Source: a phage
DNA: 64,000 nt
Sequence record: PZ445449.1
Direction: 5' to 3' (one strand)
Shown: one piece after another, positions 10,701 to 38,524 of the stretch
How the letters are laid out: each line of letters starts with the position of its first letter
Numbering within the stretch: the first letter of the stretch is position 1
Made by a program: the position numbers and the translations under genes
The notes under the pieces: generated by a model
The model's input: the letters and a program-made list of their open reading frames with translations, nothing else
Databases searched by the model: none
Told to the model about the DNA's origin: nothing

Positions 10701-13383
10701 CATCATGAGTGATCTAAGATCGAACATGGATGGAACATCCATATCTATGCAAGTTCCGGTAACAAACGGATACAAGCGTGTTGTGATGATCATTAAGTGC
10801 GATCTGATAGGTAAGCAAGTTCTTGCAGAGAACGGAACTTCCACCCACCTATTTGAGACTGCTCTGCACTATCAGTTTGCTGATTCACCTTTTGCAGGGG
10901 ATAAGAGAATATCTGACACAGACGCTGTGCGATGCAAGAAATTTATGCTAGGTGGTGGGTGGTGGTGGTATGAATTTGACTTAACAGACAAATTCACCGA
11001 CACGTCTAAAGTAGTGACGGGGCTTCGTCTAGACCTTGGCGAAAACATGCACAAAAGTGTTTGTGATGGCACCTACGGTGACCCAACAATCTACTTAAAG
11101 TATGTCTCTTTTGAGCACCCAGAGGATGTTGTTTATGGTCCAAAACTGAGACTGTTTGGCAATTGGATTGCTAAAGACAGGGTAGGTATGGGCAAGAAGG
11201 TAAGAGGCTTCTTAATGGATGCCGGTACAGAGGACATGCTAGTCAATGCAGTGTGGCCTGAATTACCTGGGACTCAGTGGAACAACTCAGCCAAATCTAT
11301 AAACTGGTTCAATATCCACAGGGCTATGTGGACAACCAACTGTTACCTGTGGAAAGAGCTGAATGACGGCGCTTTCGGGTTCACAGGCGGCAGAAGAATG
11401 GCAATCATTTGCTGGACAACGTTGCAAAGATGTTATGACCATGACTACGAGATTGGAGGTAGGGCATGGAAAAATATTAGGGATAGAATCATAACCAACT
11501 TTGCAGATCCTAACGGTGGTGGAGCGTATGGCTTCGACTGCAGCAGGCTCATCCATTTGAACGGATCCTCTGCCTACAAGAAAGAAGGTTACTCTGGGTC
11601 TATGATAGAATGGGGCCTGGTGAAAGATGCTCGCGTGCTGATGGGTCAACAACTTGCTGCTGCAATAGGTCCTAATGCAGTGCAATCTGTTAAACCTGCG
11701 TGGTTTGATATCCCATTGTGGTCATCCGGTACACCAGGAACTGCTGCAATCAACCCTACCACGGGGGATCTGGAAATCTCTTGGGAGGACTTGAAGCAGG
11801 TTGGAGGCTGGGATAAAACAGGGTATCAGGTCCAGTGGTGGAGGGCTGATGGATCTTTAGCCGCTGATGAGTTTGTTAAGGACAATTTCTACACCATGTC
11901 CTCTGCAAAAGCACAGGAATTGTTAGGTCAGGCAACTCCGTCAACGATCACCATGTCTATGTGCTGTAAAGACAACAGGACTGGAGCTTTGGGGCCAAGG
12001 GTTGCTAAAGTTTTCTCAGGTATTAAATGGAATCTACCTGTCCAAAGTATTTCATGGAAGCAAATAGGTGATAACAAGCTGCTGGTTACCCCTGCCTGTC
12101 AGTTCAACGCAACTCTTAACGTTGATCCTGCTGTTGCGGCAAACTCAGCTAAAGCCTCTGACTTCTCTGTGTCTAACACTGCTATGGCAGATGTGAGGAA
12201 GATTGACACGCTGAACGCCAGAATTACCTGTAAAAACACTTATGGCACATTCCAAATCATCAACAACTTCACAGATGCTGATTCTAAGGTAGTGAGGACA
12301 GCAAGCCAGACTCTGAGTTTAGGAACTCTGGCCTATGCGGCCCTGATCACCGAGCAGTCGGCAACACTCCAAGGAGGTGGTGTAGGCAAGTCCATTGCAA
12401 CACCTGTGTGGAAGCCAAATGAGTGGGTTGTGTTTGATTTGACTGTGGACTTCTCCAGCGATAATAACTGGACATGGGTAAGGAATTGTTTGTCACAATT
12501 GATGGGAGGTCCAAGCTCCGTTAGTGATAGTCACGACTCTACTGACCCGAGTGTGTTCCAGGTAGGTAAAACTCACCCAGAGACTGGAGAAACGTTGCCT
12601 GACAGGAAGTATGCGTTGGTTTGCATCTCTTACGGGAAGGCAGATGTCACCTTCTCAGGGACACACACTTATAACGGAACCTACAATTTCTCAAGGAAGT
12701 ATAGTCTCAAAGCAGGGAACATTATAGACGAGGTTGGTGCACTGTATAATCCTGGCAACGGCATAGGGATTGTGGGCGGTAAACTGCAGATGCAGGAACC
12801 TTCTATTACCCCTTCCAACGTATCTGGGATTAGAAAGACTTGGGAAAGTAGCAATACCAACATTGCAACAGTGGATGCTACCACAGGACTGGTAACATTT
12901 AAAGCTACTGGGAATGTCACCATAAAGTTTGTAGTTACAGATGATGCAGGCCGCAAAACGTCCTCAACATCTTTTACTGTTAAACAGATGGCACCACAGT
13001 GGAGAATGTGGATAGGTACAGCAACAAACGGGGCATACCCTAATCCGGCAGGTACTTCTGGTATGAAGACTTTCTCTACAAGCAAACCGATGGAGTACGG
13101 CAGCGGTCCTAAGGTAGGGCAGATGGTGTACTTTGGTGCGTATATTCCTGAAATTATAGGGCTTCCGAGAAGTCAGCTTCAGTTGCTGTTTGGGGCTGGT
13201 GTTGACGATCTTGCCACTTTCGGGTATAGCGACAACATCGAGGCTGCAAGGAGTTCAGGATGGGTAGGGTTCAGAATGGAGTCTGGAAAGGAAGGCAGGA
13301 TTCTAGGGACAGCCTCTATAGGTGTTATGTTCCCTGGTGACCAGCAGTATCGTCTAGAAGCCTACGCAACCTTTTCTCGTTAA
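7747..13383 (+). CDS. giant structural protein (long tail fibre / host-recognition protein) with Ig-like (Big_2-type) segment
   Basis: 1878-aa uninterrupted ORF; segment ~12.78-12.98 kb (SNVSGIRKTWESSNTNIATVDATTGLVTFKATGNVTIKFVVTDDAGRKTSSTSFTV) matches bacterial Ig-like group 2 pattern; last gene of tail module. Confidence 0.7.
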   Translation: MLPIPLLKLGRHFLDKRGGIKELAVLSYPIDNSDGTSNTVSYVNSLAILFDDGQLNITGYNRFGECRTGDLDTINYPNEAAWNVDHVWRADRAFVIRTFDNKFFYIGCTAGLIGSEAAGGNDVCVREWTPLPEQIVTGLHLDTHPERLVEVMGGVNNTVWVIAAPEADGMLHLYGSGNNTYGSLHVDKSQHATPVKIGETSESPETGPWKNPRINCEVHDNSVIFGGPNGFWIAGYDFLRNNSKNTLVYPAEHVTLDQFKGIPVGETWKGFMCGPNGAIIATERMHKPDDQQLVNVFYGQDVWGDDTWRSLNITYTHEVIMARGYGTSGIFFNNGTKQYRGFSRNLCNDIGAQSANNSPRANFIHYRALATAKFVEQTEPVSWTESVYFQGIHREGFLGTFCVVNGKLWWSGIPRGSFSGSNNLFGGRLNSQGFTEIPENWYKNVPVDSWGIEDIFDVNGVSNVSNIYIGDTVKMKLKPQPEGATFIIDKIELVNAAGTVVTDANYQFSTNWNHGGANEVVVTQYNRNINRRGLYSIKITYHDKHGTGRTYTTRTLNWNTIVPAYPSNGKWHTVGRNKQFHVNDTVYFGLNGTQPAVEGDTSYMVRLHRMDAGSVTYDVTQEIYDQRRSTYDNIVKTQALWEFNPNGKGGKMLQVNEQNGTSLTVHEHPDPWPDPGKPHPGARTLKIVSHDAGYFGIHWEATVRYVDGTTNNIGITLGGTSEDNSLKIAYTPRGISIDNMDVVRNGYGDVNVKVTLGEHLGGERIIMYAFDHDPRTNGTYANQAWSYLINAPEPNTKEFYYGMKRDVCKKTGTHDWIAICVKDERTAWDEPVNRWFIGIPTRSDKYVAEYIVCMGGTNLNMCWNEDVNKYSDYDYMRDYSCNLWFNQTTGYPPRQARVNPAIFTDTQVFLTKQANEVQTFKNKYDPNKWFYNCYGAFFWGPGELPGGGSCFEAATYASDRFMGQVKKYKIIPGPETLGNAVDPYIIMSDLRSNMDGTSISMQVPVTNGYKRVVMIIKCDLIGKQVLAENGTSTHLFETALHYQFADSPFAGDKRISDTDAVRCKKFMLGGGWWWYEFDLTDKFTDTSKVVTGLRLDLGENMHKSVCDGTYGDPTIYLKYVSFEHPEDVVYGPKLRLFGNWIAKDRVGMGKKVRGFLMDAGTEDMLVNAVWPELPGTQWNNSAKSINWFNIHRAMWTTNCYLWKELNDGAFGFTGGRRMAIICWTTLQRCYDHDYEIGGRAWKNIRDRIITNFADPNGGGAYGFDCSRLIHLNGSSAYKKEGYSGSMIEWGLVKDARVLMGQQLAAAIGPNAVQSVKPAWFDIPLWSSGTPGTAAINPTTGDLEISWEDLKQVGGWDKTGYQVQWWRADGSLAADEFVKDNFYTMSSAKAQELLGQATPSTITMSMCCKDNRTGALGPRVAKVFSGIKWNLPVQSISWKQIGDNKLLVTPACQFNATLNVDPAVAANSAKASDFSVSNTAMADVRKIDTLNARITCKNTYGTFQIINNFTDADSKVVRTASQTLSLGTLAYAALITEQSATLQGGGVGKSIATPVWKPNEWVVFDLTVDFSSDNNWTWVRNCLSQLMGGPSSVSDSHDSTDPSVFQVGKTHPETGETLPDRKYALVCISYGKADVTFSGTHTYNGTYNFSRKYSLKAGNIIDEVGALYNPGNGIGIVGGKLQMQEPSITPSNVSGIRKTWESSNTNIATVDATTGLVTFKATGNVTIKFVVTDDAGRKTSSTSFTVKQMAPQWRMWIGTATNGAYPNPAGTSGMKTFSTSKPMEYGSGPKVGQMVYFGAYIPEIIGLPRSQLQLLFGAGVDDLATFGYSDNIEAARSSGWVGFRMESGKEGRILGTASIGVMFPGDQQYRLEAYATFSR

Positions 13384-24605: not shown

Positions 24606-24636
24606 CTCCCCCGCTTCGGCGGGGATTTTCTATTTG
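24606..24636 (+). terminator. intrinsic terminator
   Basis: CCCCGC-ttcg-GCGGGG hairpin followed by ATTTTCTATTT. Confidence 0.6.
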
Positions 24637-24644
24637 GAGTTATT

Positions 24645-25145
24645 GTGAAAATTAAGATCTTTGCTATTATTTTGAGCGCATTTTTATCGCTGCCTGTTGT
24701 TGCAGCACCAAAACAAAAAGTATACCATACTTGCAAGCCATCAGATACTAAGGAAAACATTCTAGCATGCAATATCTACAGGGAAGCTAGAGGGGATGGC
24801 ACGATGGGTATGCTGGCATCTGGGTTTGCCACCCTAAACAGGAAATCTCACCCCAAATACCCAGACACCATAAGAAAGATTGTCTACCAACCTAACCAGT
24901 TTTCGTGGACAAACCACGGCAAAACTTTTAAGGTGACAGAAAAAGATTCATGGGATCACGCTAAAAGTCTTGCAAAGATGCTTCTAAAGGTCTATAATAA
25001 CAACCATGTTGCATACATGGCTATGGACATAACAGGTGGAGCAACACACTACCATACAACCAAAGTACGACCGAAATGGGCAAAAAAGATGCAGAGGACA
25101 GCTCAATTCGGGAGCCATATCTACTACAAGGAGCGCAATAAATGA
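24645..25145 (+). CDS. secreted cell-wall hydrolase, SleB/CwlJ-like family
   Basis: 166 aa; N-terminal signal-peptide-like segment MKIKIFAIILSAFLSLPVVAAP; motifs NIYREARGD and VYQPNQFSW characteristic of SleB/CwlJ hydrolases. Confidence 0.6.
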   Translation: MKIKIFAIILSAFLSLPVVAAPKQKVYHTCKPSDTKENILACNIYREARGDGTMGMLASGFATLNRKSHPKYPDTIRKIVYQPNQFSWTNHGKTFKVTEKDSWDHAKSLAKMLLKVYNNNHVAYMAMDITGGATHYHTTKVRPKWAKKMQRTAQFGSHIYYKERNK

Positions 25146-27124
25146 TTGTAAACAGTAATGAAACTAAAGCAGTGCTAACCGGAAATATGGAGGTCACCAG
25201 GGGCTCAATTTCTCTTAACAAAGAGACTTTTGGGCTAATCATTAAAGGGATTTACGAAGATAAGGTGCTGGCAAGCTGCCGTGAACCAATCTTCAATGCT
25301 GTGGACTCTCATGTTGAGTCTGGACGGGGTGATGTGCCGATCATTATTCACTCTCCTACAGACCTTGAACCATACTTCTTTGTGCAGGACGTTGGATTGG
25401 GCATGTCAGAAGAGATGGTCCGCAACACTTTCATGAACCTCGGTGAGTCAACCAAGCGCAACAGCAACGCTCTGGTTGGCAATAAAGGTGTTGGTTCAAA
25501 GGCTCCGTTCAGCATGGTGGACACTTTCGATGTTATCAGTGTGCACAATGGTATTGAAAGCACATATCTATTGTTCTTGGATCAGGGTATCCCAAACGTT
25601 ACCAAGATCCGCGAGCGGAAGACTGAAGAGCACAACGGGGTAAAAGTTCAGTTCCATGTTAAGAAAGAGCATGTCCTGAAATATCGCACTGCTATTGCAT
25701 CGTGCTTACGCTATGCGAAGTTTCCGTTCATCGTCACCGATCCCATGACCAGTAAGATGTTAGAAGGTGACAAGGTTGAGGCACAGTATCATTACGAGAA
25801 GGATGGCTGGAAAATGACCATCCTGAAAGGTTATACCAGTTCTGATGAGAGCCGTGTTGTGATGGGTCACCAACCTTACCGCTCCAAGTTCCTGGAGACA
25901 TTGACCGATTACCCTGCAATCTGCGTGGAAATTCCTATTGGGGATTGCAATATTAACCCTGGGCGTGAATGGACCATAGAGGGCCATGACGACGGTGGAT
26001 TCCAGGATCGCCTGGAGGCATTTGTCAAAGAAGGTATACGTCTTCGCGGGGCAGAAGTTGTTGCAGAACTGGAGACGGCAAAAACCTCCGCAGAAGCACG
26101 TGAAATGATGAAGAATAGTGGAGTGTTCGGACACATCTTCGGCAAGAACTTTATGTGGAACCGTTGGGAAGAAACAGGGCTTGGCGACTTAGGCGATTGT
26201 GAAATTTTCGCTGGCGGCTTAAATAAAGGCCGCATAGGCTATGCTTGTTACGGAAAGTCGGAGTTCTTACGAGGTGTATACCTTGTATTTAACGACGGAG
26301 ACGGCAAATATAACCGGAATAAGTGTAACTACTTAAGCGAGATCACCGGACGCAACGTTTTCTATTGCCGGAACACGGATCTGGTGAAAGAGTTTAAAGA
26401 GGCGGCACACCATCCGTTCTTTGCAGATACGGTCAAATTGTTATCGGAGCTTCCACGCCGACCTGCGAAGAAAGGTGAAACCAAAACTCGTTACGAGCCA
26501 GGCTACTGGGTTAAGAAGCTTAGAGAGGATGGCTACTTCCATCGTGAGCGCCTCACGAAGGCAGAGTTCAAGAAGATTAAGCATTGCATCCCTTATGAGG
26601 GGGATATCCAACGGGGAAGCTGCTGGCTGGGCCAGATGAGTAACATCTACCAGCAAAATTATGACCGTGTGCGTGCTGCACTCCAGATTCCTGAAGGTGA
26701 AGATCTGTACCTGGTATCAGAATCTCGTCTGCTTTGGACTGATCCTGATTGCCAGTATGTTACAGAGAAGAATGTGGAACATTTGTTGAAAGAGGATGCT
26801 TGGAAATTCTTACTGACTCGCGCAGCAAATGAAACTTCATATGACAGCCTGTATAGACAATTAGGGAAAATTATCCCCATGCAGGATTTTGGAAATTATC
26901 GGCCACATTTCCACAAGTGGGAAGGTAACACCACGTGGAAGCACAGTGAGCTAAATCATCGTGCCAAAATCTTAATCGCCAACCTAGTTAAATGCGGGAA
27001 GGCCTATATTGCAAGATTGGAAAAGAAATACCCACTTTTGAAGCATGTAGGCTTGAAATATTGGGACACCCCTGCTATGATTGAATACCGTGAGCTGATT
27101 GATACAAAGAATAACACCAAATAA
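25142..27124 (+). CDS. GHKL-type ATPase-domain protein (Hsp90/MutL/MORC-like ATP-binding fold)
   Basis: 660 aa; N-box-like FNAVDS, G1 box VQDVGLGM followed by ...NLGESTK..., G2 box GNKGVGSKA, in canonical order; rest of protein unrecognised. Confidence 0.6.
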   Translation: MIVNSNETKAVLTGNMEVTRGSISLNKETFGLIIKGIYEDKVLASCREPIFNAVDSHVESGRGDVPIIIHSPTDLEPYFFVQDVGLGMSEEMVRNTFMNLGESTKRNSNALVGNKGVGSKAPFSMVDTFDVISVHNGIESTYLLFLDQGIPNVTKIRERKTEEHNGVKVQFHVKKEHVLKYRTAIASCLRYAKFPFIVTDPMTSKMLEGDKVEAQYHYEKDGWKMTILKGYTSSDESRVVMGHQPYRSKFLETLTDYPAICVEIPIGDCNINPGREWTIEGHDDGGFQDRLEAFVKEGIRLRGAEVVAELETAKTSAEAREMMKNSGVFGHIFGKNFMWNRWEETGLGDLGDCEIFAGGLNKGRIGYACYGKSEFLRGVYLVFNDGDGKYNRNKCNYLSEITGRNVFYCRNTDLVKEFKEAAHHPFFADTVKLLSELPRRPAKKGETKTRYEPGYWVKKLREDGYFHRERLTKAEFKKIKHCIPYEGDIQRGSCWLGQMSNIYQQNYDRVRAALQIPEGEDLYLVSESRLLWTDPDCQYVTEKNVEHLLKEDAWKFLLTRAANETSYDSLYRQLGKIIPMQDFGNYRPHFHKWEGNTTWKHSELNHRAKILIANLVKCGKAYIARLEKKYPLLKHVGLKYWDTPAMIEYRELIDTKNNTK

Positions 27125-27134
27125 GGAGATAGTT

Positions 27135-28340
27135 ATGATTTTCATCTACGAACACTTCAAAACTCGTAAAGAAGCACGCGACCGCCGTGCAGAACTTGAG
27201 AAGAAGGGTTTCACATGTGCCATTGAGAAAGGCGACACAACCTGGACACTGGCAGTTGGTGCCCCAGAGTTGTTCGATCCTGACCGTGACAGCGTCTGCT
27301 ACACCCGTGAGGATTTTGAAACCCGTGAAGAGGCCCGTCTATTTCGATATGGGCTGGAAGATAATGGTAAGTACGCCATGATCTTAGACTTAGGCGAAGG
27401 TTCCGTTAAACGTTGGGGCGTGGTATACCCACTGTGTGTTGTTCACGGTGTGGGGTTCACTGGGGTGGCAATCAAGTCAGAAGAACCTTTAGTAGAAGTC
27501 AAAGACCCGGTGCTGGAGGTGGTGAGCAGTGTGTCTCAGCAACAGACTCGAAGCATCGAGCCTTTAGTAGTTATTTGTGGGGAACTCCTCCAGATCACCT
27601 GCAACGAAGGCATTTTTGAAATTCGCCGCAGCGAAAGTGAGGAAGTTTACCAGAAAGTCTTCGACCATATCTCTGTTCAGGAATATGATGAGGCAATTGG
27701 TGAAATCCTTGTCTGGCTGGAACGCAAGAATGAGTTCACCACACTTGCAGACAACCTGATCATGAAAGATGGTAAGCTCTACTACTACGGTGTAGAGATG
27801 CGATCCACCATTGCAAAGAAAATTGAGAAAGACTATGCAGACGGAACACTGGATGACCGCTATGTGAAATTCCTCGTTCGCCTGCTACGCAATCCTTCTG
27901 CAAAATCTGTAAACATGCTCTACGATTTTATGCAGGCCAACGATATCCAGATTGCAGAAGATGGTCGAATCATTTGCTACAAAGGGGTTCAGTTTAACGG
28001 CAGCAAGTGGGTGGATTGGCACAGTGGTAAAGTTCCACAATACCAGGGTGCTTTTGTATCCATGCCTCGTAACTTTGTAGAGGATGATCCTGAAGCTGCG
28101 TGCTCCTATGGCTTACACTGCGCCAGCAAGGAGTATGCAAAGAGCTACGGCACTGTAATGACTGTCATGGTTGACCCTGCAGATGTGGTTAGTGTGCCAT
28201 ACCAACACAATAGCGCTAAGTGCCGTGCATGCCGCTATGAGATTGTGGTAGCTCCGGAAGCACGCAAGGACGGAGACCCGATTGAATACGTGGTTGACCG
28301 AGACGGTAACACTATCGACATTCTTTACGAGGAGGCGTAA
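27135..28340 (+). CDS. hypothetical protein with duplicated N-terminal motif
   Basis: ATG at 27135 with AAGGAG RBS; repeated F-x-TR-x-EAR ... G segments near N-terminus; no recognisable catalytic motif. Confidence 0.55.
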   Translation: MIFIYEHFKTRKEARDRRAELEKKGFTCAIEKGDTTWTLAVGAPELFDPDRDSVCYTREDFETREEARLFRYGLEDNGKYAMILDLGEGSVKRWGVVYPLCVVHGVGFTGVAIKSEEPLVEVKDPVLEVVSSVSQQQTRSIEPLVVICGELLQITCNEGIFEIRRSESEEVYQKVFDHISVQEYDEAIGEILVWLERKNEFTTLADNLIMKDGKLYYYGVEMRSTIAKKIEKDYADGTLDDRYVKFLVRLLRNPSAKSVNMLYDFMQANDIQIAEDGRIICYKGVQFNGSKWVDWHSGKVPQYQGAFVSMPRNFVEDDPEAACSYGLHCASKEYAKSYGTVMTVMVDPADVVSVPYQHNSAKCRACRYEIVVAPEARKDGDPIEYVVDRDGNTIDILYEEA

Positions 28341-29710
28341 TGGAAAAAGGGCAGTATGATGTAGGCACAGATGCTGCCCTTGTTGCAATCATGAGCGGTG
28401 AGAATGTCTTCGTTTCAGGACCTGCAGGTTGTGGGAAGACGTATCTCATCAACATGATCCAGTCAATGTATGGAGACTCTTGCATAACGGTTGCCCCGAC
28501 AGGGGTAGCCGCTTTAAACGTTAATGGAGCAACAGCACACCGAACCTTCGATCTTGCAGCAGGTGTGAGCATGGAGTCAGACTGGACCGCAATAAGGGCA
28601 AAAACAGCAAAGCCTTTGAAAAGCAAGGCATTTACCATCCTAATTATCGATGAAATCTCTATGATCCGTGCTGATAAGTTTATAGAGATGGATAGGAAAC
28701 TCCGCTTCCTTCGAAAAAATGACAAACCTTTCGGAGGCATACAGGTCATATTGTTTGGCGATTTTTACCAGGCACCTCCTGTTGTCTCTTCTATGGAGAA
28801 GGAAGCCTACTTCAACTTCTACCATACGGACCTGTGTTGCTATACCGAATCTTGGAAAGAGCTTGACCTCCACAACATAGCCCTAATAGATCAGTTCCGA
28901 CAGGAGTCTATTCGATTTGCTACAATGCTCAACTGTGTTCGTGAGGGTCGTCGCATAAAAGAGGTTGTAGCAGAACTTAATGCTCGCTGTTACAAAGGAG
29001 GTGTACCAACAGACGCTCTCACAATTTGCGCCACCAACAAACAAGCAGAGGAAGTGAACAGAAGGTTCTATGATGCCATCAACGCCCCAGAGAAGGTATA
29101 CACTGGTGAAATGAAGGGTAAGTTTCCCTCCACCCTACCAGTTGAGCAGGAGATGAAGTTGAAAATTGGCATGAAAGTTATGATAACCGCCAACGATGTT
29201 GACCCGACGCACAAAGTACCTTATTATGTTAACGGAACACGTGCTACAATTGTTAAATTTAAGAACAAGGCGGTGGTGGTAGAGCTTGAAGATGGAACAC
29301 AGGTTGACATAGAGCAGAGGTTGTGGGAGAATAACGAGTATAAGCCATCTCAGAGATACAACATTGCAGAAAGGAAGATGGAGAAGTTTATAGAGAGGGT
29401 AGTGATTGGGTCATACAAGCAACTTCCTCTGAAATCTGGGTACGCCGTAACATCTCATAAAAGTCAAGGACTTACACTAGATTGTTACAACCTAGACCTT
29501 GGAAAGAACGGAGCTTTCTCTCCTGGGATGACGTATGTCGCTTTGAGTAGAGTTAAGACAATACAAGGAATAAACTTGTTGCGTCCACTAAGAGAGGTTG
29601 ACATTATTGTTGACCCGCGAGTCGTAGAGTTTTACAATACAACATTCCCTGACTTAGACAAAATTGTCAGGAAAGATTTTGAAACCAGAGCAGAAGAGGG
29701 GGACGTATGA
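28340..29710 (+). CDS. PIF1/Dda-like SF1B DNA helicase
   Basis: 456 aa; Walker A GPAGCGKT, TVAPTGVAA...TAHRTF, Walker B IIDEISM, C-terminal VTSHKSQGLT...TYVALSR. Confidence 0.8.
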   Translation: MEKGQYDVGTDAALVAIMSGENVFVSGPAGCGKTYLINMIQSMYGDSCITVAPTGVAALNVNGATAHRTFDLAAGVSMESDWTAIRAKTAKPLKSKAFTILIIDEISMIRADKFIEMDRKLRFLRKNDKPFGGIQVILFGDFYQAPPVVSSMEKEAYFNFYHTDLCCYTESWKELDLHNIALIDQFRQESIRFATMLNCVREGRRIKEVVAELNARCYKGGVPTDALTICATNKQAEEVNRRFYDAINAPEKVYTGEMKGKFPSTLPVEQEMKLKIGMKVMITANDVDPTHKVPYYVNGTRATIVKFKNKAVVVELEDGTQVDIEQRLWENNEYKPSQRYNIAERKMEKFIERVVIGSYKQLPLKSGYAVTSHKSQGLTLDCYNLDLGKNGAFSPGMTYVALSRVKTIQGINLLRPLREVDIIVDPRVVEFYNTTFPDLDKIVRKDFETRAEEGDV

Positions 29711-30048
29711 GTTTGTGGAGAAATATCGTTAACTACGTGTGCGGCAATCCAACTCCTGAAGAGAAGGATGTTGTGATTCACGATTTTACTAAAAGATCTC
29801 GTGAAAAAGATCTACTGCTAACAAAGGTGACTGATAAAGATCCTGCAGTAGGGGACTGGGCAGGTTTTGCGTTTACATCGGACAAATACACCTTTAACAA
29901 AGGTGACTACCTTGTTGTGGATTTTAACGAAGACATTGAGGGTGCTGAACCTTACTATCAAACCCTTATTGTTGCAGGGTGTGTTGATCTCTCTGCAGGC
30001 ATGCACAGTTTGATTCTTTTTGAGCTTGACTCTGAAGACCTTGAGTAG
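29707..30048 (+). CDS. hypothetical protein
   Basis: 113-aa ORF overlapping upstream stop. Confidence 0.45.
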   Translation: MSLWRNIVNYVCGNPTPEEKDVVIHDFTKRSREKDLLLTKVTDKDPAVGDWAGFAFTSDKYTFNKGDYLVVDFNEDIEGAEPYYQTLIVAGCVDLSAGMHSLILFELDSEDLE

Positions 30049-30108
30049 TAAGATGTGAGTATAAAGGGGAGGCACTCCTCCCCACAAAAACTAAGGAAGC
30101 ACTAAACG

Positions 30109-30411
30109 ATGAAACGTTATAAACCATACACTTTTGAAATCGATTTCGAACTTGACGATATGTTTACTGTGGAAGCTCAGGCAGTTGTCCAGTTGCCAGA
30201 CTCGGAGTGCCGTGACTCTGATGTTGACTATTACGGGTTTAGACAAATTACCGATGTGCGTGTTTACCACAACGGTGAAGAGGTGGACTTCCACCAACTG
30301 CCAAACGATATGCGCCACTCAATTTACAAACGTGCAGCCCGTGAACTAGAGTCCTATCTGGATGCAGCGACGACAGCAGCTGCATTTGCTGAAGAAGTGG
30401 GAGGTTTCTGA
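30109..30411 (+). CDS. hypothetical protein
   Basis: 100 aa; preceded by hairpin GGGGAGG-cac-TCCTCCCC and AAGGAAG RBS. Confidence 0.5.
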   Translation: MKRYKPYTFEIDFELDDMFTVEAQAVVQLPDSECRDSDVDYYGFRQITDVRVYHNGEEVDFHQLPNDMRHSIYKRAARELESYLDAATTAAAFAEEVGGF

Positions 30412-31301: not shown

Positions 31302-31306
31302 CACTA

Positions 31307-31335
31307 GGCCCTGCCCGAAAGGGTGGGGCTTTTTG
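31307..31335 (+). terminator. intrinsic terminator with GAAA tetraloop (copy 1 of 2)
   Basis: GCCCTGCCC-gaaa-GGGTGGGGC followed by TTTTT; same element recurs at 43531-43560. Confidence 0.6.
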
Positions 31336-31352
31336 CATTAGGAGACAGCAAA

Positions 31353-32114
31353 TTGAAATTCATCTACAAAGAACACTACCACAAAGGTGTTGTGTGGAGT
31401 CTATTTGACGGGTCTGGTGGTGCAGTTATTGACTGGGCGAAAGCTGGGTACCTGTGCCTGTGCTTTAATGCAGAAGGTGCTGACCACGGCAGTTATGCAG
31501 AGGTGATAACCGATCATCCTAACATTCACTATGTGGATTATTGGATTGACCCATGGTTCCCTCAGGAAACTTTTTGCATGTATCCAGCTCCAGACTTTAT
31601 TCTTGCATTTCCTCCGTGCACGCATTTAGCGGTATCAGGTGCTGCACATTTTAAGAAAAAGCTGGCTAAGGATCCTTTGATCCAAATTAATGCTGTAAAG
31701 GATGCTCGGGTTGCGGAAGAGTTGGGAGAGATTTACGATTGCCCGTGGCATGTAGAGAATCCTGTAGGGGTTATGTCCACACTGTGGCGAAAACCTGATT
31801 ACCGTTTTCATCCTTCGGATTATGGTGGGTATTTACCGGAGGATGATGTAAACCCCTGGTTTCCTGAATTTATAGCTCCACGTGATGCCTATCCAAAAAT
31901 AACTTGCGGCTGGATAGGCAATGGATTTATAATCCCGGCCACAAAACCTGTCCCGCAAATAGTTGACGCGGTTAGCGGGTATTCCATGCAACACGCCAAG
32001 CTGGGTGGAAAGAGTGCAAGAACGAAGATGATTCGAAGCCTCACACCACGTGGCTGGGCAAAAGCCGTATTCTTAGCAAACGAGCCTGCAGTAAGGAGAA
32101 GGTCCAATGGTTGA
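31353..32114 (+). CDS. DNA (cytosine-5)-methyltransferase-like protein
   Basis: Motifs in order LFDGSGG (motif I-like), AFPPCTHLAVSGA (PC catalytic motif IV-like), HVENPVG (ENV motif VI-like); start assigned to TTG 31353 after AGGAGA, uncertain. Confidence 0.45.
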   Translation: MKFIYKEHYHKGVVWSLFDGSGGAVIDWAKAGYLCLCFNAEGADHGSYAEVITDHPNIHYVDYWIDPWFPQETFCMYPAPDFILAFPPCTHLAVSGAAHFKKKLAKDPLIQINAVKDARVAEELGEIYDCPWHVENPVGVMSTLWRKPDYRFHPSDYGGYLPEDDVNPWFPEFIAPRDAYPKITCGWIGNGFIIPATKPVPQIVDAVSGYSMQHAKLGGKSARTKMIRSLTPRGWAKAVFLANEPAVRRRSNG

Positions 32115-32778
32115 CTGGAGCAAGTATTTCACCTATCGCGACGGCAAACTGTTCTGGGCGTATACCGCAAAAGCCGGAAGGGGCAGGATCATACATTACG
32201 CAGGTGAGGAGGCCACAGGCACAGATAAAGATGGCTATAGAGTAATAAATGTGTCAGGTGTTGGGAGTGTTCGTAGGCATAGAATAATTTGGGAGATGCA
32301 TTACGGAGAGATACCTGAAGGTCTTGTTGTGCGGCACAAGAACGACATGGCAGGGGATGATAGGATAGAGAACTTAGTCCTAGGGACACAGGGTGATAAT
32401 GCACGAGACATGATCTACAGTGACAAGCTGAACATTAATAATACCTCAGGGTATCGTGGCGTGCGCTATCATAGAGGTATAAAAAGATGGACTGCATCTG
32501 CTGGAGACATATACTTAGGGTGTTTTAAGACAAAAGAGGATGCAATTGCATGCAGAAAGTTATGGGAGAAGGGAAAATTCGTCCCGCAAGAATTAGATGT
32601 TAGAAACACTAGCGGTGTGACAGGGGTGTTCTATGTGCCGAGCTCTGGAAGGTGGAGAGTCCGAGTGCAAAGCGGCAAAAAGAGAAAGAGCTATGGCACT
32701 TACAACACTTTAGAAGAAGCAAAAGCTGTAAGGGATAAAGTGATGAAAGATATTGAGGAGTTTAAAGATGGGGAATAA
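32107..32778 (+). CDS. HNH homing endonuclease with AP2-type DNA-binding repeats
   Basis: 223 aa; HNH_3-type segment HRIIWEMHYGEIPEGLVVRHKNDMAGDDRIENL; two SGYRGV / SGVTGV ... W AP2-like repeats. Confidence 0.7.
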   Translation: MVDWSKYFTYRDGKLFWAYTAKAGRGRIIHYAGEEATGTDKDGYRVINVSGVGSVRRHRIIWEMHYGEIPEGLVVRHKNDMAGDDRIENLVLGTQGDNARDMIYSDKLNINNTSGYRGVRYHRGIKRWTASAGDIYLGCFKTKEDAIACRKLWEKGKFVPQELDVRNTSGVTGVFYVPSSGRWRVRVQSGKKRKSYGTYNTLEEAKAVRDKVMKDIEEFKDGE

Positions 32779-34846
32779 GTTTATACCCTCTGCATATAAC
32801 CGCTATGGAGAACCTAACCCAGTTGCAACAAGATACAAAAGCGGAGGTAGTATGAAACGAGACTATCGAGATGAAAAAGAGGTTGAAACCGTAGAGACCG
32901 TTTTAGAAAATACTAAAATTGTCCCTGTCCCACAACAAAATATCGGTCTAATGGCTGCACAATATTTTGGTGTGCGATCAGCATTGTCCCAAGAAGATGG
33001 TGTGACAGTGACTGCAACATATTTCCCATATTACGACCGCTACGGAAATCTGTCCGGTTTCAAAAAGCGTGATTGGTCTAAGCCAAAAGAGCAGAAAGGG
33101 CACTGGTCTGTGGTAGGCATAGTAAAGGCTAACTCCCAGATGTTTGGTCAAAAGCTGTGTGCATCTTCCAACAACCGTAAGCAGATTAACGTTTGTGAGG
33201 GAGAAGGTGATGTTATTGCAGCATGGCAGGCTGCATATCAGATACAAGTAAAAGGGATTCTCACCAACGCTAAAGCCCCGGCAAAGGTGAAGCAGTGGGC
33301 TAAAGAGGTCCAGGACGGAATCGATGCAGTTATCAACGGTGGTGATCTGGCAGGAAAACCCTGCCTGCCTTTTGTTGGAATTAACTGTGGATGTGCAAAC
33401 GCAGTAGATACTTTTGCAAACAATGAGAAGTTTATCCGTAGCTATGGAACAGTTGTGCTGGCAATGGATAACGATGCAGCTAACGAGGTAGAGAAGCAAA
33501 AACACGTCATTAAAGGTGTTGAGGCCACGCACAATATCGCAGCATTTTTGATGGCTGATAACGTTTACCACGTAGAATACCCTGGTGAAGTAAATGACCC
33601 TGACGGTGTAAAAGATATCCGAGACATGCTGAAGGCTAAAAAGCTGGAAGATATTGTCAACATGTTCCGGCACCCTGTTAAATATGTGCCTGATGCTGTG
33701 TCGGATTTAGAAGACTTCTCTATCGAGTCTTTGCGGAAAAAGACTTCCAACGGGGTAGATATCAGTGCAGAGTTCCCAAAACTGCAAAAAATGCTAAAAG
33801 GCTTGCACAAAGGGACACTTGTAATGCTTACAGGTCCATCAGGCGGCGGTAAAACAACCGTGGCTAAAAAACTGGAACACTGTATTGCAAGATACCTAAT
33901 GGACCCGACATGCCCGAAGGCCGATGACTATGAAGAGGATGATCGTCTATGCATGATCCATCTTGAGGAGGATCCAGAGGAAGCAATTAACTCCTTGTAT
34001 GCAAACCAGTTAGGGTTTGATGTTAAAGAGTTTGTTGAAGATCCTAGCCAGTTTTTAACTGATCAAGAACACGCAGAGATTCACCAATCATGGGCAAAAG
34101 CTGGAAAAATCAAAGTGTTCAAACATTTCGGGTCTATTCCGGTGGACGAGTTGATTACCAAGCTTAAGCAAATGGTTTGCCTGTACCATTGTCGTTATAT
34201 TGTGCTGGATCACCTGTCCATGGTAATTTCAGGGCTTAATGTTAAGGATGAGCGAAAAGAACTGGACATGGCTATGACCCAACTGGCTGCGTTTTGTAAG
34301 CAGTTTAACGTGTTTATCTTGGTGATCGCTCACCTCAAACGTACAGAGATTGTGCCCCCTAAGGACAAGGATGGTAACCCATTACCTTTCTGGTATCCTG
34401 TGCGAAAAGAGAATTTGCGAGGATCGGCTGGGCTTGAACAGTTGAGTTGGGTAGTCATAGGTGTCGAGGCCGAAGAAATGGTGGATCGTTCTCGTGGACG
34501 TGTCCGTCTGGTAGGTCTTAAAAACCGTCCAGCAAAAACTTTAGGTATTGCTGACACTTTAGTTATGGATCCGCATACAGGTAAGTTCCACGATGCCAGT
34601 AATTGGTACTGGGACAAAGAAATGCAGATGTTCACAGACGGAGAAGGTGGGGAGGTTGTTTGGAGACCTCAGGCTATGTTTGAGGATCAGGAGCATGCAG
34701 TTGTAGAAACACCTATGGGCAAGGTTGTGGCTGATAAGGTTGTAACACCCACTGTCAAGCCTATTGACACGCAGGAAGACCTCCAATACGATGATCCATC
34801 CTCTGATCCGGTCCCTGGTTTTGAGGATGATGAAACACCTTTTTAA
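32768..34846 (+). CDS. bifunctional DNA primase-helicase (T7 gp4-like)
   Basis: TOPRIM-like VCEGEGDVIAAW in N-terminal half; DnaB-family Walker A LTGPSGGGKTT and H4-like region in C-terminal half; ATG 32768 with AGGAG RBS. Confidence 0.75.
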   Translation: MGNKFIPSAYNRYGEPNPVATRYKSGGSMKRDYRDEKEVETVETVLENTKIVPVPQQNIGLMAAQYFGVRSALSQEDGVTVTATYFPYYDRYGNLSGFKKRDWSKPKEQKGHWSVVGIVKANSQMFGQKLCASSNNRKQINVCEGEGDVIAAWQAAYQIQVKGILTNAKAPAKVKQWAKEVQDGIDAVINGGDLAGKPCLPFVGINCGCANAVDTFANNEKFIRSYGTVVLAMDNDAANEVEKQKHVIKGVEATHNIAAFLMADNVYHVEYPGEVNDPDGVKDIRDMLKAKKLEDIVNMFRHPVKYVPDAVSDLEDFSIESLRKKTSNGVDISAEFPKLQKMLKGLHKGTLVMLTGPSGGGKTTVAKKLEHCIARYLMDPTCPKADDYEEDDRLCMIHLEEDPEEAINSLYANQLGFDVKEFVEDPSQFLTDQEHAEIHQSWAKAGKIKVFKHFGSIPVDELITKLKQMVCLYHCRYIVLDHLSMVISGLNVKDERKELDMAMTQLAAFCKQFNVFILVIAHLKRTEIVPPKDKDGNPLPFWYPVRKENLRGSAGLEQLSWVVIGVEAEEMVDRSRGRVRLVGLKNRPAKTLGIADTLVMDPHTGKFHDASNWYWDKEMQMFTDGEGGEVVWRPQAMFEDQEHAVVETPMGKVVADKVVTPTVKPIDTQEDLQYDDPSSDPVPGFEDDETPF

Positions 34847-34904: not shown

Positions 34905-37328
34905 ATGAGCATGTGGTCGTTCGATTTTGAGTCATCCGGTTTGCTGGAAGACCCAGATCTTTATTATCACTGCGGTCTGTTTAAAGAGCTGAATAAGAAC
35001 CGTTTTATGCTGTTCCTTCCTCTAAATGACCGCACACACTACTCCGAGGAGGATATAGAAAAGGCTAAGAACTTCATTCTGGCAAAGAAAACTCTTTATA
35101 AAGATTTTGAAGTTCGCATAGCAGATTTTTCGGAGTTGGAAGGTTGGCTTACAGGCAATTCTGACTGGTCACCAACAGCTTTGAACTGCCATAACTGCTA
35201 CAGTTATGACTTTATGCTGATGGAAAGATTATCCGGTATTCATTTTGATATGTTCCGTGATCCTAAATGCATGGGAACTATCAACGACCACCAGGTTAAC
35301 CTGTTTGATACGTTGGCGATGAGCCGAATCTTGTGGCCTGATCGCCCTTTACCAAAAGGTTGTCCGGACTCTGTATTCAACCCGGTTACTAAGAAAATGC
35401 AGCCTGTTGGTCCTCACGGCCTTATGGCATGGGGCTACGCCCTTGGTAACCAGAAAGTTCAAATTGATGACTGGCGCGATCTTCCGTTGTGGAAGTATGT
35501 GGATCGTGTATTCGAGGACGTTATCATCCAGGAGCTGCTCTGGAAAGAGCTGGTAGCGGAATCAAAAGGTGTATTCTACGGCAAATCTGACATGCAGAAC
35601 TTTATGTACGATCCAGCCAAAGAGAAGCCGAAAGGGTTCAAGAAAATCACCTGGAAGAACGCATTACGCCGAGGCATGCTGCAGCACTTCCTGATGGAGC
35701 TGCAGGCCCGTCAGGGTGTGTATTTCGACATAGATGGGGCTATTGCTTTACGTGACCGTTGCGATGCGTGGATGAAAGAGATCGCTGATCGTGTTGAACC
35801 TCAACTTCCTTTAAAAGAGTTGTCAATGTCTCAGCGGCCAAAGTTCCCTGAAAAGCCGTTTAACCAAGATGGGACAATCTCCAATAATGGTTGGAAATGG
35901 TTAAAAGATAAGCTTGGCTATCCTGTAGACATGAGCGCTTTAGAATTCAAAGCCCCGCCTAAGCGAGCATTTACCTCCACAGGAGATGTCAGCAAGATGG
36001 GGATAAAATGGTGTGAAGAGATGGGCTGCAAAGACCCAGACAAGATGGCTGATTTCTTGAGAGGTTATATTAAGGGCACCTCCACACCACAACCTTTACC
36101 TAAAGAGCTGATGGATCAGGCAATAAGTGATCTGCAGCAGAAGCGAATGCCTGACTGCAAGATACCTATGAAAATCAGCAATCAGGACGACATTAAGCGA
36201 TACCTGATCAGTGCTGGTTGGCTTCCGACAATGTGGAGAACTAAGGATGTAACTAAGGACAGCAAGAAGAAAGCTCTACCTGATGCAGATGTTGATGCAC
36301 GAGTATATGCATACATGGACGAGCTTTTAGAGTCAGAGTATTGTGACCTAATTATCAACTTCTGGAACAAAACTGATGCTAAGTTTCAGACAACAGTGCA
36401 CAAGTTCCGAAGCTTTCCTAACTCCGAAAGGATTAAAAAGGAAGTGTTCGGGAAAATACGCAGAAAAGCCAGGGCACTTATTACTTCTCCGCAACTGAAA
36501 GATACGTTTGGACACCTATGTCCGAATCTTGAAAAATTGAACGGAGAGATGGCTAAAGATATCGTCTTGTGGTTATCATTGCGAAACCGCAGATCGGTCC
36601 TTGATCCAATCAAGGAGGATAAGGTTGATACTGGTCTTCTTAATCACCCACGTTTGAAGATTGACCATAAGCTTCCTGCTAAAAGCTCTGGATTAACAAA
36701 CACTTCCCGACAGAAACACAGTATTTGTGCAAACATGCCTAAACCATCTCCTAAAGTGGTTATGGGTAAAGAGATGCGTAGCTTGTGGGGTGTTCCTCCT
36801 GGATACTTTGAGATCGGTATTGACGGGTCCAACTTAGAGCAGCTTATCGGGGCTTGGGGTGCCTTTGAGTTCGACAACGGCTTGTACTATGATGTTGTAA
36901 GTAACGGGGACGCACACCAAAACAATGCTGAGGCATATACAAAAGTAGCAGGCAGAGAGGTGTCTCGTAACGACGGTAAACCTATCACGTATGGGGTTAT
37001 GTACGGGGCACAAAAAGATAAAGTTGCAGATATGCTGGATATCTCCCCAGAGTTGGGGCAAAGGGTGATCGATGCACTTTGGGATGCCAACCCCGGTCTT
37101 AAGGGGCGCAAAGAGGATCTGGAGAAATTCTGGGAAGCAACAGGTAAGAAGTTTATCTACTCTTTTGATGGTCATGCTATCTGGACCCGATCTAAACACT
37201 CTTTACTTAATGCATACCAACAAAATGGTGGTGCATCGCTGTGTGACTTAGTTGGGATACTCATGCACCACCAAATGGTGAAGCGTGGGTGGTACGATGA
37301 AGGTGTCCGTCGTATTATCTATTACCAT
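34905..37328 (+). CDS. DNA polymerase family A, exon 1 (exonuclease and polymerase motifs A and B)
   Basis: Exo I FDFESSG; motif A IDGSNLEQL; motif B KPITYGVMYGAQ; ORF ends ...RIIYYH then K-stop exactly where motif C (HDE) is expected. Confidence 0.75.
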
Positions 37329-38170
37329 AAATAACATTGTGGCTTCGTGCAGTGATGCACGTCGAAAACCTCTTTAATTGACGGGAAGGCTAAGTTGACT
37401 TTTACACCTAAACATGGTAAAAGCTCAATATGCTAATCCGCAGCGAAGACTAAAGGGGTGTAGTTAAAATGGCTAGATCAGCTGATTATCACGGATATAC
37501 CGTGTTTGATGATGGAACAATACCTTTATCGAAACGTGATCATACAACAATGTTTTGTTTTGATAATGGTCGAGGTTACCTTTGCGTAACCATGCTCATT
37601 GAGGGGAAGCAGTGCACAAAAGGTGTCCACCACTTGGTTGCTGAATGCTTTGTATCAAACCCTGATCCTGAAAAGCTCACATGGGTGAACCATAAGGACG
37701 GAAACAAGTACAACAATGCATACTGGAACCTTGAATGGACCACCCCTGGTGGAAATATCAAACACGCCTATGATAATGACCTCAGAGTAAGGCCAGTTGG
37801 TGAGTATAATGCCAACGCTGTGCTGACCGAGGATGAGGTAATGGAGATTTGTGAACTGTTGCAGAGTGGTCTACGACAATGGGAGATTAGGGATCTTGGG
37901 TATCCTTATGAGACGGTCAGAGCCATAAAGCAAAGAAGACAGTGGAAACATATCTCTAAAAACTACACCTGGTAGTAACGTTCAGAGACTATCGAAAGCA
38001 TAGCTCCAACATAGTTTGGTGTGAAGAAGCGAGTAGAGTAGGCCAGCAAGTGCGGTCGAAATGAGAGGTGCCTTGGTAACAAGGTAGTGAGATAGTCCGA
38101 TCCATACAGGAAACCGTATGGCTGTGCACGTAATGGTGCGGGGTAGCTTAACGACCTACCTGAACTATTG
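37329..38170 (+). mobile_element. candidate group I intron carrying an HNH homing endonuclease gene, inserted in the DNA polymerase gene
   Basis: 842-nt insertion between ...YYH (last exon-1 nt is T) and DEYQLQV...; last inserted nt is G; contains free-standing HNH ORF 37469-37975. Confidence 0.55.
37469..37975 (+). CDS. HNH homing endonuclease (insertion-encoded)
   Basis: 168 aa; HNH_3 motif VNHKDGNKYNNAYWNLEWTT; AAAGGGG RBS. Confidence 0.7.
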   Translation: MARSADYHGYTVFDDGTIPLSKRDHTTMFCFDNGRGYLCVTMLIEGKQCTKGVHHLVAECFVSNPDPEKLTWVNHKDGNKYNNAYWNLEWTTPGGNIKHAYDNDLRVRPVGEYNANAVLTEDEVMEICELLQSGLRQWEIRDLGYPYETVRAIKQRRQWKHISKNYTW

Positions 38171-38524
38171 GATGAGTACCAACTTCAAGTCCCTGACACG
38201 CCTAAGTATAAGACTGTGTACACCTTCGACACAATCGAAGAACTGGAAGCATTTAAGGCAGAGCAGGAGGCCAAACTTCATGTGTTCGACGGTCATAAGT
38301 ACAAAAAGGCACGCAAGGATGAGGACGGAAACGAAGTGGTTGACAGAGACGGAAACACGGTGTACGATCCTATCCTGAACGATGACGGAAAGCTTGAACT
38401 TATCTGGAGCCCTGTGGGTGAAATGGTGGTGCATTGCTTCTGGCAAGCTTCTAAAATGATGGGCGTCCCGTTCCAGATCACAGGTGAATACCTGTGTGGT
38501 CGTAATTGGGGTGATTGTCACTAA
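38171..38524 (+). CDS. DNA polymerase family A, exon 2 (motif C to C-terminus)
   Basis: Frame opens just upstream and reads DEYQLQV...; C-terminus ...GRNWGDCH resembles T7 DNA polymerase terminus ...GPNWAICH as recalled from memory. Confidence 0.6.
   Translation, partial: DEYQLQVPDTPKYKTVYTFDTIEELEAFKAEQEAKLHVFDGHKYKKARKDEDGNEVVDRDGNTVYDPILNDDGKLELIWSPVGEMVVHCFWQASKMMGVPFQITGEYLCGRNWGDCH

Follow-up and report, generated by a model that had tools for sequence, protein, structure and literature searches.

The gene pair at 25142-27124 and 27135-28340 of the 64,000-nucleotide stretch of phage DNA analyzed here (sequence record PZ445449.1, hereafter the window) is, with a probability of about 0.93, the rIIA/rIIB pair of a Vequintavirus (rV5-like) phage of E. 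coli, serving as a counter-defence against Rex-type abortive infection. The family identity of the two proteins, the fold of rIIA, the intactness of its ATP-binding motifs and the preservation of the gene order were tested in this analysis, while the RexAB-dependent requirement is taken from the literature on EdH4, a phage with 98%-identical proteins, and would apply to the window by analogy. The original prediction, made from the sequence alone, described a GHKL-type ATPase and an uncharacterised 402-residue partner upstream of a helicase gene, and suggested an undescribed replication accessory or anti-defence module. Anti-defence was the right kind of function, in the form of rII counter-defence against RexAB, but the module is not undescribed: it is homologous to T4 rIIA/rIIB, is already named in the annotation of dozens of near-identical genomes and has been tested experimentally through its orthologues in the sister phage EdH4, and the partner is rIIB. 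The three reading frames were correctly placed, tightly linked (a 10-nucleotide gap and a 1-nucleotide overlap) and co-oriented, and only the length of the partner needs correction, to 401 amino acids plus the stop. The two genes are:

25142-27124, + strand: rIIA, open reading frame of 660 amino acids
27135-28340, + strand: rIIB, open reading frame with a ribosome-binding site, 401 amino acids plus stop

Profile searches against PHROGs identified the pair at once, contrary to its supposed novelty: rIIA matched phrog_612 'RIIA' (E 4.7e-124), with residues 1-657 aligned to profile positions 1-723 of 725, and rIIB matched phrog_609 'RIIB' (E 1.3e-61). In BLASTP comparisons with the T4 genome record, residues 1-190 of rIIA aligned with residues 1-196 of T4 rIIA (28% identity, E 3e-21), and residues 172-371 of rIIB with residues 107-304 of T4 rIIB (37% identity over 204 residues, E 4e-39). 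At the DNA level, the two genes match 120 phage records with 94-99% identity. Of these records, 85 cover at least 80% of the rIIA-rIIB query, and nearly all belong to Vequintavirus, that is, to the rV5-like myoviruses of E. coli with genomes of about 131-143 kb. Many of the near-identical records carry the labels 'rIIA/rIIB lysis inhibitor', 'RIIA protector from prophage-induced early lysis' or 'membrane integrity protector rIIA/rIIB'. Phage rV5 encodes an 'rIIB protector' with 100% identity to rIIB of the window, and matches at 97% to the same group of phages were obtained with the first 25 kb of the window. Since the matches of the DNA, of rIIB and of the first 25 kb point to Vequintavirus, the window belongs to Vequintavirus and the locus is its rII locus. 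An N4-like phage, as suggested by the presence of rIIA/rIIB, a MoxR-type ATPase, a helicase and Pol A, was dropped as a candidate, the DNA matches being to Vequintavirus. Essentially the same rII genes, with the same neighbours, are found in rV5, EdH4, PMBT16 and the Vequintavirus isolates of the BASEL collection (e.g., EduardKellenberger); inside the rII genes, these differ from the window by point differences only, and the homing-endonuclease insertions of the window lie outside the rII genes. When the two proteins were compared by sequence with the PDB, the best E-value was 0.12, and no solved rIIA or rIIB was found. Among the matching records were 16-17 unannotated GenBank entries (MG0656xx) named 'Campylobacter phage', with Campylobacter jejuni as the host, which are 95-98% identical to the E. 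coli Vequintavirus of the window and look like coliphage genomes that were given the wrong label or entered as contaminants.

Phage T4, in which the pair forms Benzer's rII locus, requires rIIA and rIIB only on hosts with lambda RexAB, an abortive-infection system acting through depolarisation of the membrane. RIIA or RIIB was knocked down in T4, MM02, EdH4, SUSP1 and N4 (Adler et al., 2025, PMC11879866), and it was reported for the five phages collectively that the knockdown had no effect in E. coli without Rex and reduced the plating efficiency in E. coli expressing lambda RexAB. EdH4 is Vequintavirus murica, and its RIIA and RIIB are identical to the proteins of the window at 648 of 660 and 391 of 401 positions, respectively. 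Given the reported EdH4 knockdown and the 98% identity, the function is established in an essentially identical pair to the extent that it is for any rII system. The window pair thus resembles the T4 pair in being homologous, in carrying the same GHKL motifs, in having rIIA followed by rIIB on the same strand and, as reported for the 98%-identical EdH4 orthologues, in the Rex-dependent requirement. It differs in protein size (660 as compared to 725 amino acids for rIIA, and 401 as compared to 312 for rIIB), in the N-terminus of rIIB and in the surrounding genes. On its own, the RIIB protein of phage T6 is toxic, and it activates a gasdermin-based defence system of bacteria.

The rIIA protein was divided into three parts:

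25220-25711, + strand: Bergerat-fold (GHKL) ATP-binding domain, about residues 27-190
25727-25996, + strand: transducer-like second domain, about residues 196-285, with the invariant residues Y246, R275 and E276
26000-27121, + strand: C-terminal region, about residues 287-660, lineage-specific

The GHKL signatures pointed out in the original prediction (E48-x3-N52-A-x-D55, D83-x-G-x-G, N99-L-G-E-S-T-K and G113-x-x-G-x-G) are not due to chance, since rIIA scored 35.6 bits against Pfam HATPase_c_3 (cut-off 25) and the motifs were invariant across 30 homologues, in which Y246, R275 and E276 were the remaining invariant residues. NCBIfam gave sub-threshold GHKL-type matches only (sacsin, Hsp90, BbrUII). 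The structural matches, listed with the aligned length as the second figure, were to ParE 43K (15.8; 261), the phage T6 topoisomerase II ATPase (15.4; 264), TRAP1 (14.9; 308), GRP94 (14.7; 321), the MutL N-terminal domain (14.4; 245) and MORC3 (13.6; 248), with values of at most 6.9 for histidine kinases. Because the aligned lengths exceed that of the Bergerat fold (about 160-180 residues), we conclude that rIIA contains both an ATP-binding and a transducer-like domain. In GyrB, MutL and Hsp90, a lysine or arginine of the second domain senses the gamma-phosphate, and by comparison with these proteins R275 would be a candidate for the same role in rIIA.

Residues 287-660 of rIIA were modelled with high confidence as a mixed alpha/beta region, for which no Pfam family scored above its cut-off and no PDB match could be attributed to the region. 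Beyond residue 196, BLASTP found no pairwise similarity to T4 rIIA, yet the full-length phrog_612 profile covers this region. In the rIIA family, an N-terminal GHKL ATPase domain is followed by a highly variable C-terminal part (Iyer et al., 2021, PMC7824862), a layout into which rIIA of the window fits. The expected lack of a TOPRIM or MutL C-terminal segment was borne out, in that searches of Pfam, PHROGs and NCBIfam with rIIA and rIIB detected neither a TOPRIM or topoisomerase family nor a breakage-reunion domain, nor the dimerisation/endonuclease domain that forms the C-terminus of MutL. Thus, rIIA shares the GHKL and transducer module with the ATPase subunits of type IIA topoisomerases (GyrB/ParE/T4 gp39), but the pair has neither their TOPRIM domain nor a GyrA-type breakage-reunion partner. 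Likewise, the module is not followed by the C-terminal domain of MutL nor, by sequence, by the middle or C-terminal domains of Hsp90. The identity of rIIA to the modules of GyrB/ParE 43K, phage T6 topoisomerase II, MutL, MORC and Hsp90 is only 8-16%, and these GHL systems have no counterpart of rIIB. The likeness of rIIA to a GHL ATPase in its way of working is confined to the ATPase module. The original prediction was to be refuted by a match to a well-characterised topoisomerase or MutL-type system, and in spirit this came about: the pair does match a known system, although this system is rII.

The following parts were distinguished in rIIB:

27141-27260, + strand: N-terminal repeat 1, residues 3-42, beta-alpha-beta-beta
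27291-27443, + strand: N-terminal repeat 2, residues 53-103, beta-alpha-beta-beta
27564-28250, + strand: conserved core, folded residues 144-372, of which residues 172-371 (27648-28247) can be aligned to T4 rIIB

The model of rIIB, built with 28 homologues, consists of two beta-alpha-beta-beta units, a low-confidence linker (residues 101-141) and a mixed core (residues 144-372). The core family is large, with 7639 representative clusters at E <= 1e-3 and tblastn matches in 2877 of 50,697 phage records, and PF26926.1 was assigned to every rIIB homologue listed in the precomputed annotation. Eight residues (N253, K283, R312, C323, H328, K362, R364 and Y368) were invariant in 40 diverse rIIB-core proteins including that of T4, with C323 and H328 located within the motif C-S-x-G-L-H. 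This motif was also invariant in the homologue alignments, as were NPS, MPRN, P-x-D-V-V-S-x-P and K-x-R-x-C-x-Y. Judged from this conservation, the invariant residues look like a functional pocket, which tempers the earlier statement that the partner has no recognisable catalytic site. No structural relative of the core was found in the PDB, and rIIB had no match in NCBIfam. In one database protein, possibly an assembly chimera, TPR repeats are fused to 55% of an rIIB, from its C-terminal side, with 99% identity to that of the window.

The duplicated N-terminal motif that had been noticed in the sequence is real: residues 6-25 and 59-78 share 11 identities over 20 positions, and both copies keep the pattern F-x-[ST]-R-x-E-A-R ... 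W-x-V across the 28 homologues. Against Pfam SPOR (cut-off 21), the N-terminus scored 19.3 bits with the whole protein and 23.4 bits as an isolated fragment, the match being limited to positions 12-49 of 76, that is, to half of the profile; repeat 2 gave no Pfam SPOR match. Foldseek matched the repeats to the SPOR domain of CwlC with a probability of 0.99, but the resemblance may reflect merely a common small fold, since designed EHEE mini-proteins match better. In contrast to the SPOR proteins CwlC and RlpA, rIIB of the window lacks an export signal. No transmembrane segment was predicted in rIIA or rIIB, and no signal peptide or N-terminal hydrophobic segment in rIIB, for which the maximal 19-residue hydropathy was 1.69 in a poorly conserved stretch (residues 95-113). 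Lacking a signal peptide and transmembrane segment, rIIB should not reach the peptidoglycan.

These results bear on the idea that rIIA and rIIB are lysis-timing proteins with a direct delaying effect on lysis, perhaps in concert with the cell-wall hydrolase encoded upstream. Such a role would agree with the 'lysis inhibitor' label in PHROGs and many GenBank records, the rapid-lysis plaque phenotype historically described for T4 r mutants, the overlap of the secreted-type hydrolase gene with the start of rIIA, and the likeness of the rIIB N-terminus to peptidoglycan-binding SPOR domains. What brings about lysis inhibition proper in T4 is rI together with the holin, rather than rII. The T4 record names the proteins protectors from prophage-induced early lysis, a phenotype that depends on host prophage genes, and the knockdown is reported to have no phenotype when Rex is absent (PMC11879866). 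Together with the absence of a route for rIIB to the peptidoglycan, these observations make a direct role in lysis timing highly improbable.

The N-terminus is also the part in which rIIB differs most clearly from its T4 counterpart. In T4 rIIB, it has weak matches to helix-turn-helix (HTH) families (HTH_7, E 5.6e-5, and others), whereas the same Pfam searching gave no HTH match in rIIB of the window, where the tandem SPOR-like repeat occupies that place. Accessory domains among the 40 diverse rIIB-core proteins were mostly HTH or NUMOD, with HTH families the commonest, and two of the 40 carried a phosphopantetheine-attachment (acyl-carrier-like) domain, which is surprising in an anti-defence protein. 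As HTH, NUMOD or acyl-carrier-like domains are found elsewhere and SPOR-like repeats here, the terminal module of rIIB varies between lineages; the duplicated N-terminal motif is the Vequintavirus version of this module, and the HTH-like segment is a lineage trait that does not define the family. A role of rIIB as a transcription factor tuning the phage programme to host physiology has been proposed for orthologues in jumbo phages (Iyer et al., 2021, PMC7824862), and the HTH matches in T4 rIIB and the prevalence of HTH among the accessory domains agree with that proposal. For the pair in the window we regard it as most improbable: the N-terminus here is SPOR-like rather than HTH, it is the core that is invariant across the family, and the toxicity of RIIB alone and its triggering of the gasdermin defence point to a cellular effect beyond gene regulation. 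A more speculative suggestion, which we hold to be rather unlikely, is that the core, with its invariant residues and no solved structural relative, is more than a passive partner, namely an enzyme or a ligand- or small-molecule-binding domain that is retargeted in each lineage through swappable terminal domains. If this were true, rIIB of Vequintavirus would be anchored to another cellular target than T4 rIIB.

Under the rII counter-defence assignment, rIIA and rIIB would be made together from one tightly packed string of genes. By comparison with other GHL ATPases, rIIA may act as an ATP-driven dimerising clamp, with the second domain sensing the gamma-phosphate, putatively through R275, and with rIIB as its partner or effector. 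The variable terminal domains of the two proteins might supply the targeting. Together, rIIA and rIIB would block the activation or the effect of Rex-type systems, such that the phage multiplies in RexAB cells, and both would be dispensable in hosts without a Rex-type system. In this specific form, the clamp-plus-partner model is tentative. Several points weigh against the counter-defence assignment or its mechanism. The Rex phenotype comes from the EdH4 orthologues, that is, from a phage other than that of the window, to which it would be transferred by analogy, and the EdH4 outcome is given collectively with those of four other phages. The papers on rII that were consulted document no ATPase activity of any rIIA, no rIIA-rIIB complex and no direct contact with RexA or RexB, and call the mechanism unclear. 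Since neither protein has a predicted transmembrane segment, any association with the membrane would be peripheral. Finally, the model of rIIB is only moderately confident (mean predicted local distance difference test score of 73).

The genes and signals surrounding the pair are:

24609-24624, + strand: terminator-like hairpin, found by a consensus scan; the equivalent site in EdH4 is annotated as a putative terminator
24645-25145, + strand: SleB/CwlJ-type cell-wall hydrolase (Pfam Hydrolase_2, E 2.1e-19)
28340-29710, + strand: Dda/PIF1-like superfamily 1 helicase, 456 amino acids (Pfam PIF1, E 1.1e-32; phrog_325, E 6.4e-112)

The hydrolase gene overlaps rIIA by 4 nucleotides, rIIA and rIIB are separated by 10 nucleotides, rIIB overlaps the helicase gene by 1 nucleotide, and the helicase gene overlaps the next open reading frame by 4 nucleotides. 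An AAGGAG sequence is located 8-9 nucleotides before both rII starts. The hairpin at 24609-24624 is likely to be the 5' limit of a hydrolase-rIIA-rIIB-helicase transcription unit, and the consensus scan identified a second terminator-like hairpin at 31306-31331; the string of genes between the two hairpins consists of the hydrolase, rIIA, rIIB, the helicase and several small open reading frames. A promoter scan was uninformative (23 sites, as compared to 20 expected). The hydrolase has a signal-peptide-like hydrophobic N-terminus and is encoded within an early/replication gene block, outside any lysis cassette.

Conservation of the gene neighbourhood, which had been proposed as a check, was confirmed: all 16 of the 16 related IMG/VR contigs have the order rIIA-rIIB-helicase, even where the rII proteins are only 33-40% identical, and the hydrolase comes before rIIA in 11 of these loci. 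The contigs represent one broad lineage and are mostly 84-148 kb in size, with one of 38 kb. In T4, rIIA likewise immediately precedes rIIB in the same orientation, but the neighbours are different, and the arrangement between a cell-wall hydrolase and a Dda-like helicase gene is not that of T4. The conserved linkage would be expected if rIIA and rIIB were accessories in DNA replication or topology, with a GHKL clamp and its partner acting on replicating DNA together with the Dda-like helicase. Also in line with this explanation, the best structural matches of rIIA are the ATPase modules of type II topoisomerases, including that of phage T6, and many rIIB homologues, including T4 rIIB, carry DNA-binding HTH or NUMOD domains. 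Old T4 genetics, moreover, tied rII mutations to the suppression of ligase mutants. On the other hand, rIIA and rIIB contain none of the TOPRIM, breakage-reunion or MutL endonuclease domains, rIIB of the window has no HTH, and the linkage may represent an inherited order rather than a functional coupling, since the 16 loci come from one lineage and the neighbours differ in T4. In addition, the knockdown of RIIA or RIIB is reported to be harmless to infection of Rex-free hosts in five phages including the 98%-identical Vequintavirus (PMC11879866). A role as a replication accessory, the other half of the original proposal, is therefore very unlikely, and the helicase is best described as a conserved downstream neighbour of rIIA and rIIB, whose own part in rII function may be no more than putative.

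Outside the rII genes, the window contains insertions and variable sites. The gene for a family-A DNA polymerase (34905-37334 and 38171-38521) is split after residue 808 with respect to the polymerase of PMBT16 (925 amino acids) by an insertion of 842 base pairs (37329-38170) that contains an open reading frame for an HNH endonuclease (37469-37975; phrog_59, E 3.9e-37), and the last 117 polymerase residues resume in another frame. No group I intron was detected in this insertion by Rfam at the gathering threshold, and the insertion is therefore an intron of a kind not modelled there or else a free-standing homing endonuclease by which the polymerase is divided into two genes. A second homing-endonuclease gene (32107-32778), encoding 223 amino acids with HNH_3 and AP2 domains, is located between the genes for a Dcm-like methyltransferase (31323-32114) and a primase/helicase (32753-34846) and overlaps both. 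Since the methyltransferase directly abuts the primase/helicase in PMBT16 and EduardKellenberger, this gene is a mobile insertion. Just downstream of the helicase operon, PMBT16 contains an extra gene (10970-12295) annotated as a type III restriction-modification methylation subunit. This gene is absent from EduardKellenberger and from the window, where the equivalent place is the gap near 30048-30109, so that this place is a variable anti-restriction or methylase slot beside the rII-helicase block. ARAGORN detected no tRNA genes anywhere in the window, and Rfam gave no family at its gathering threshold.

For the rII family in general, two aspects are mildly new: the SPOR-like tandem repeat that replaces the HTH in the rV5-like lineage, and the set of invariant polar residues in the rIIB core, for which there is no solved relative. 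Although they are no discovery on this locus, the structural details provide concrete mutational targets for the whole family, namely the complete GHL-type ATPase module of rIIA with its intact active site, the invariant Cys/His/Lys/Arg/Tyr set of the rIIB core and the swapped terminal domain of rIIB. The question of general interest, which matters little for this window, is how rIIA and rIIB neutralise RexAB, seventy years after Benzer.

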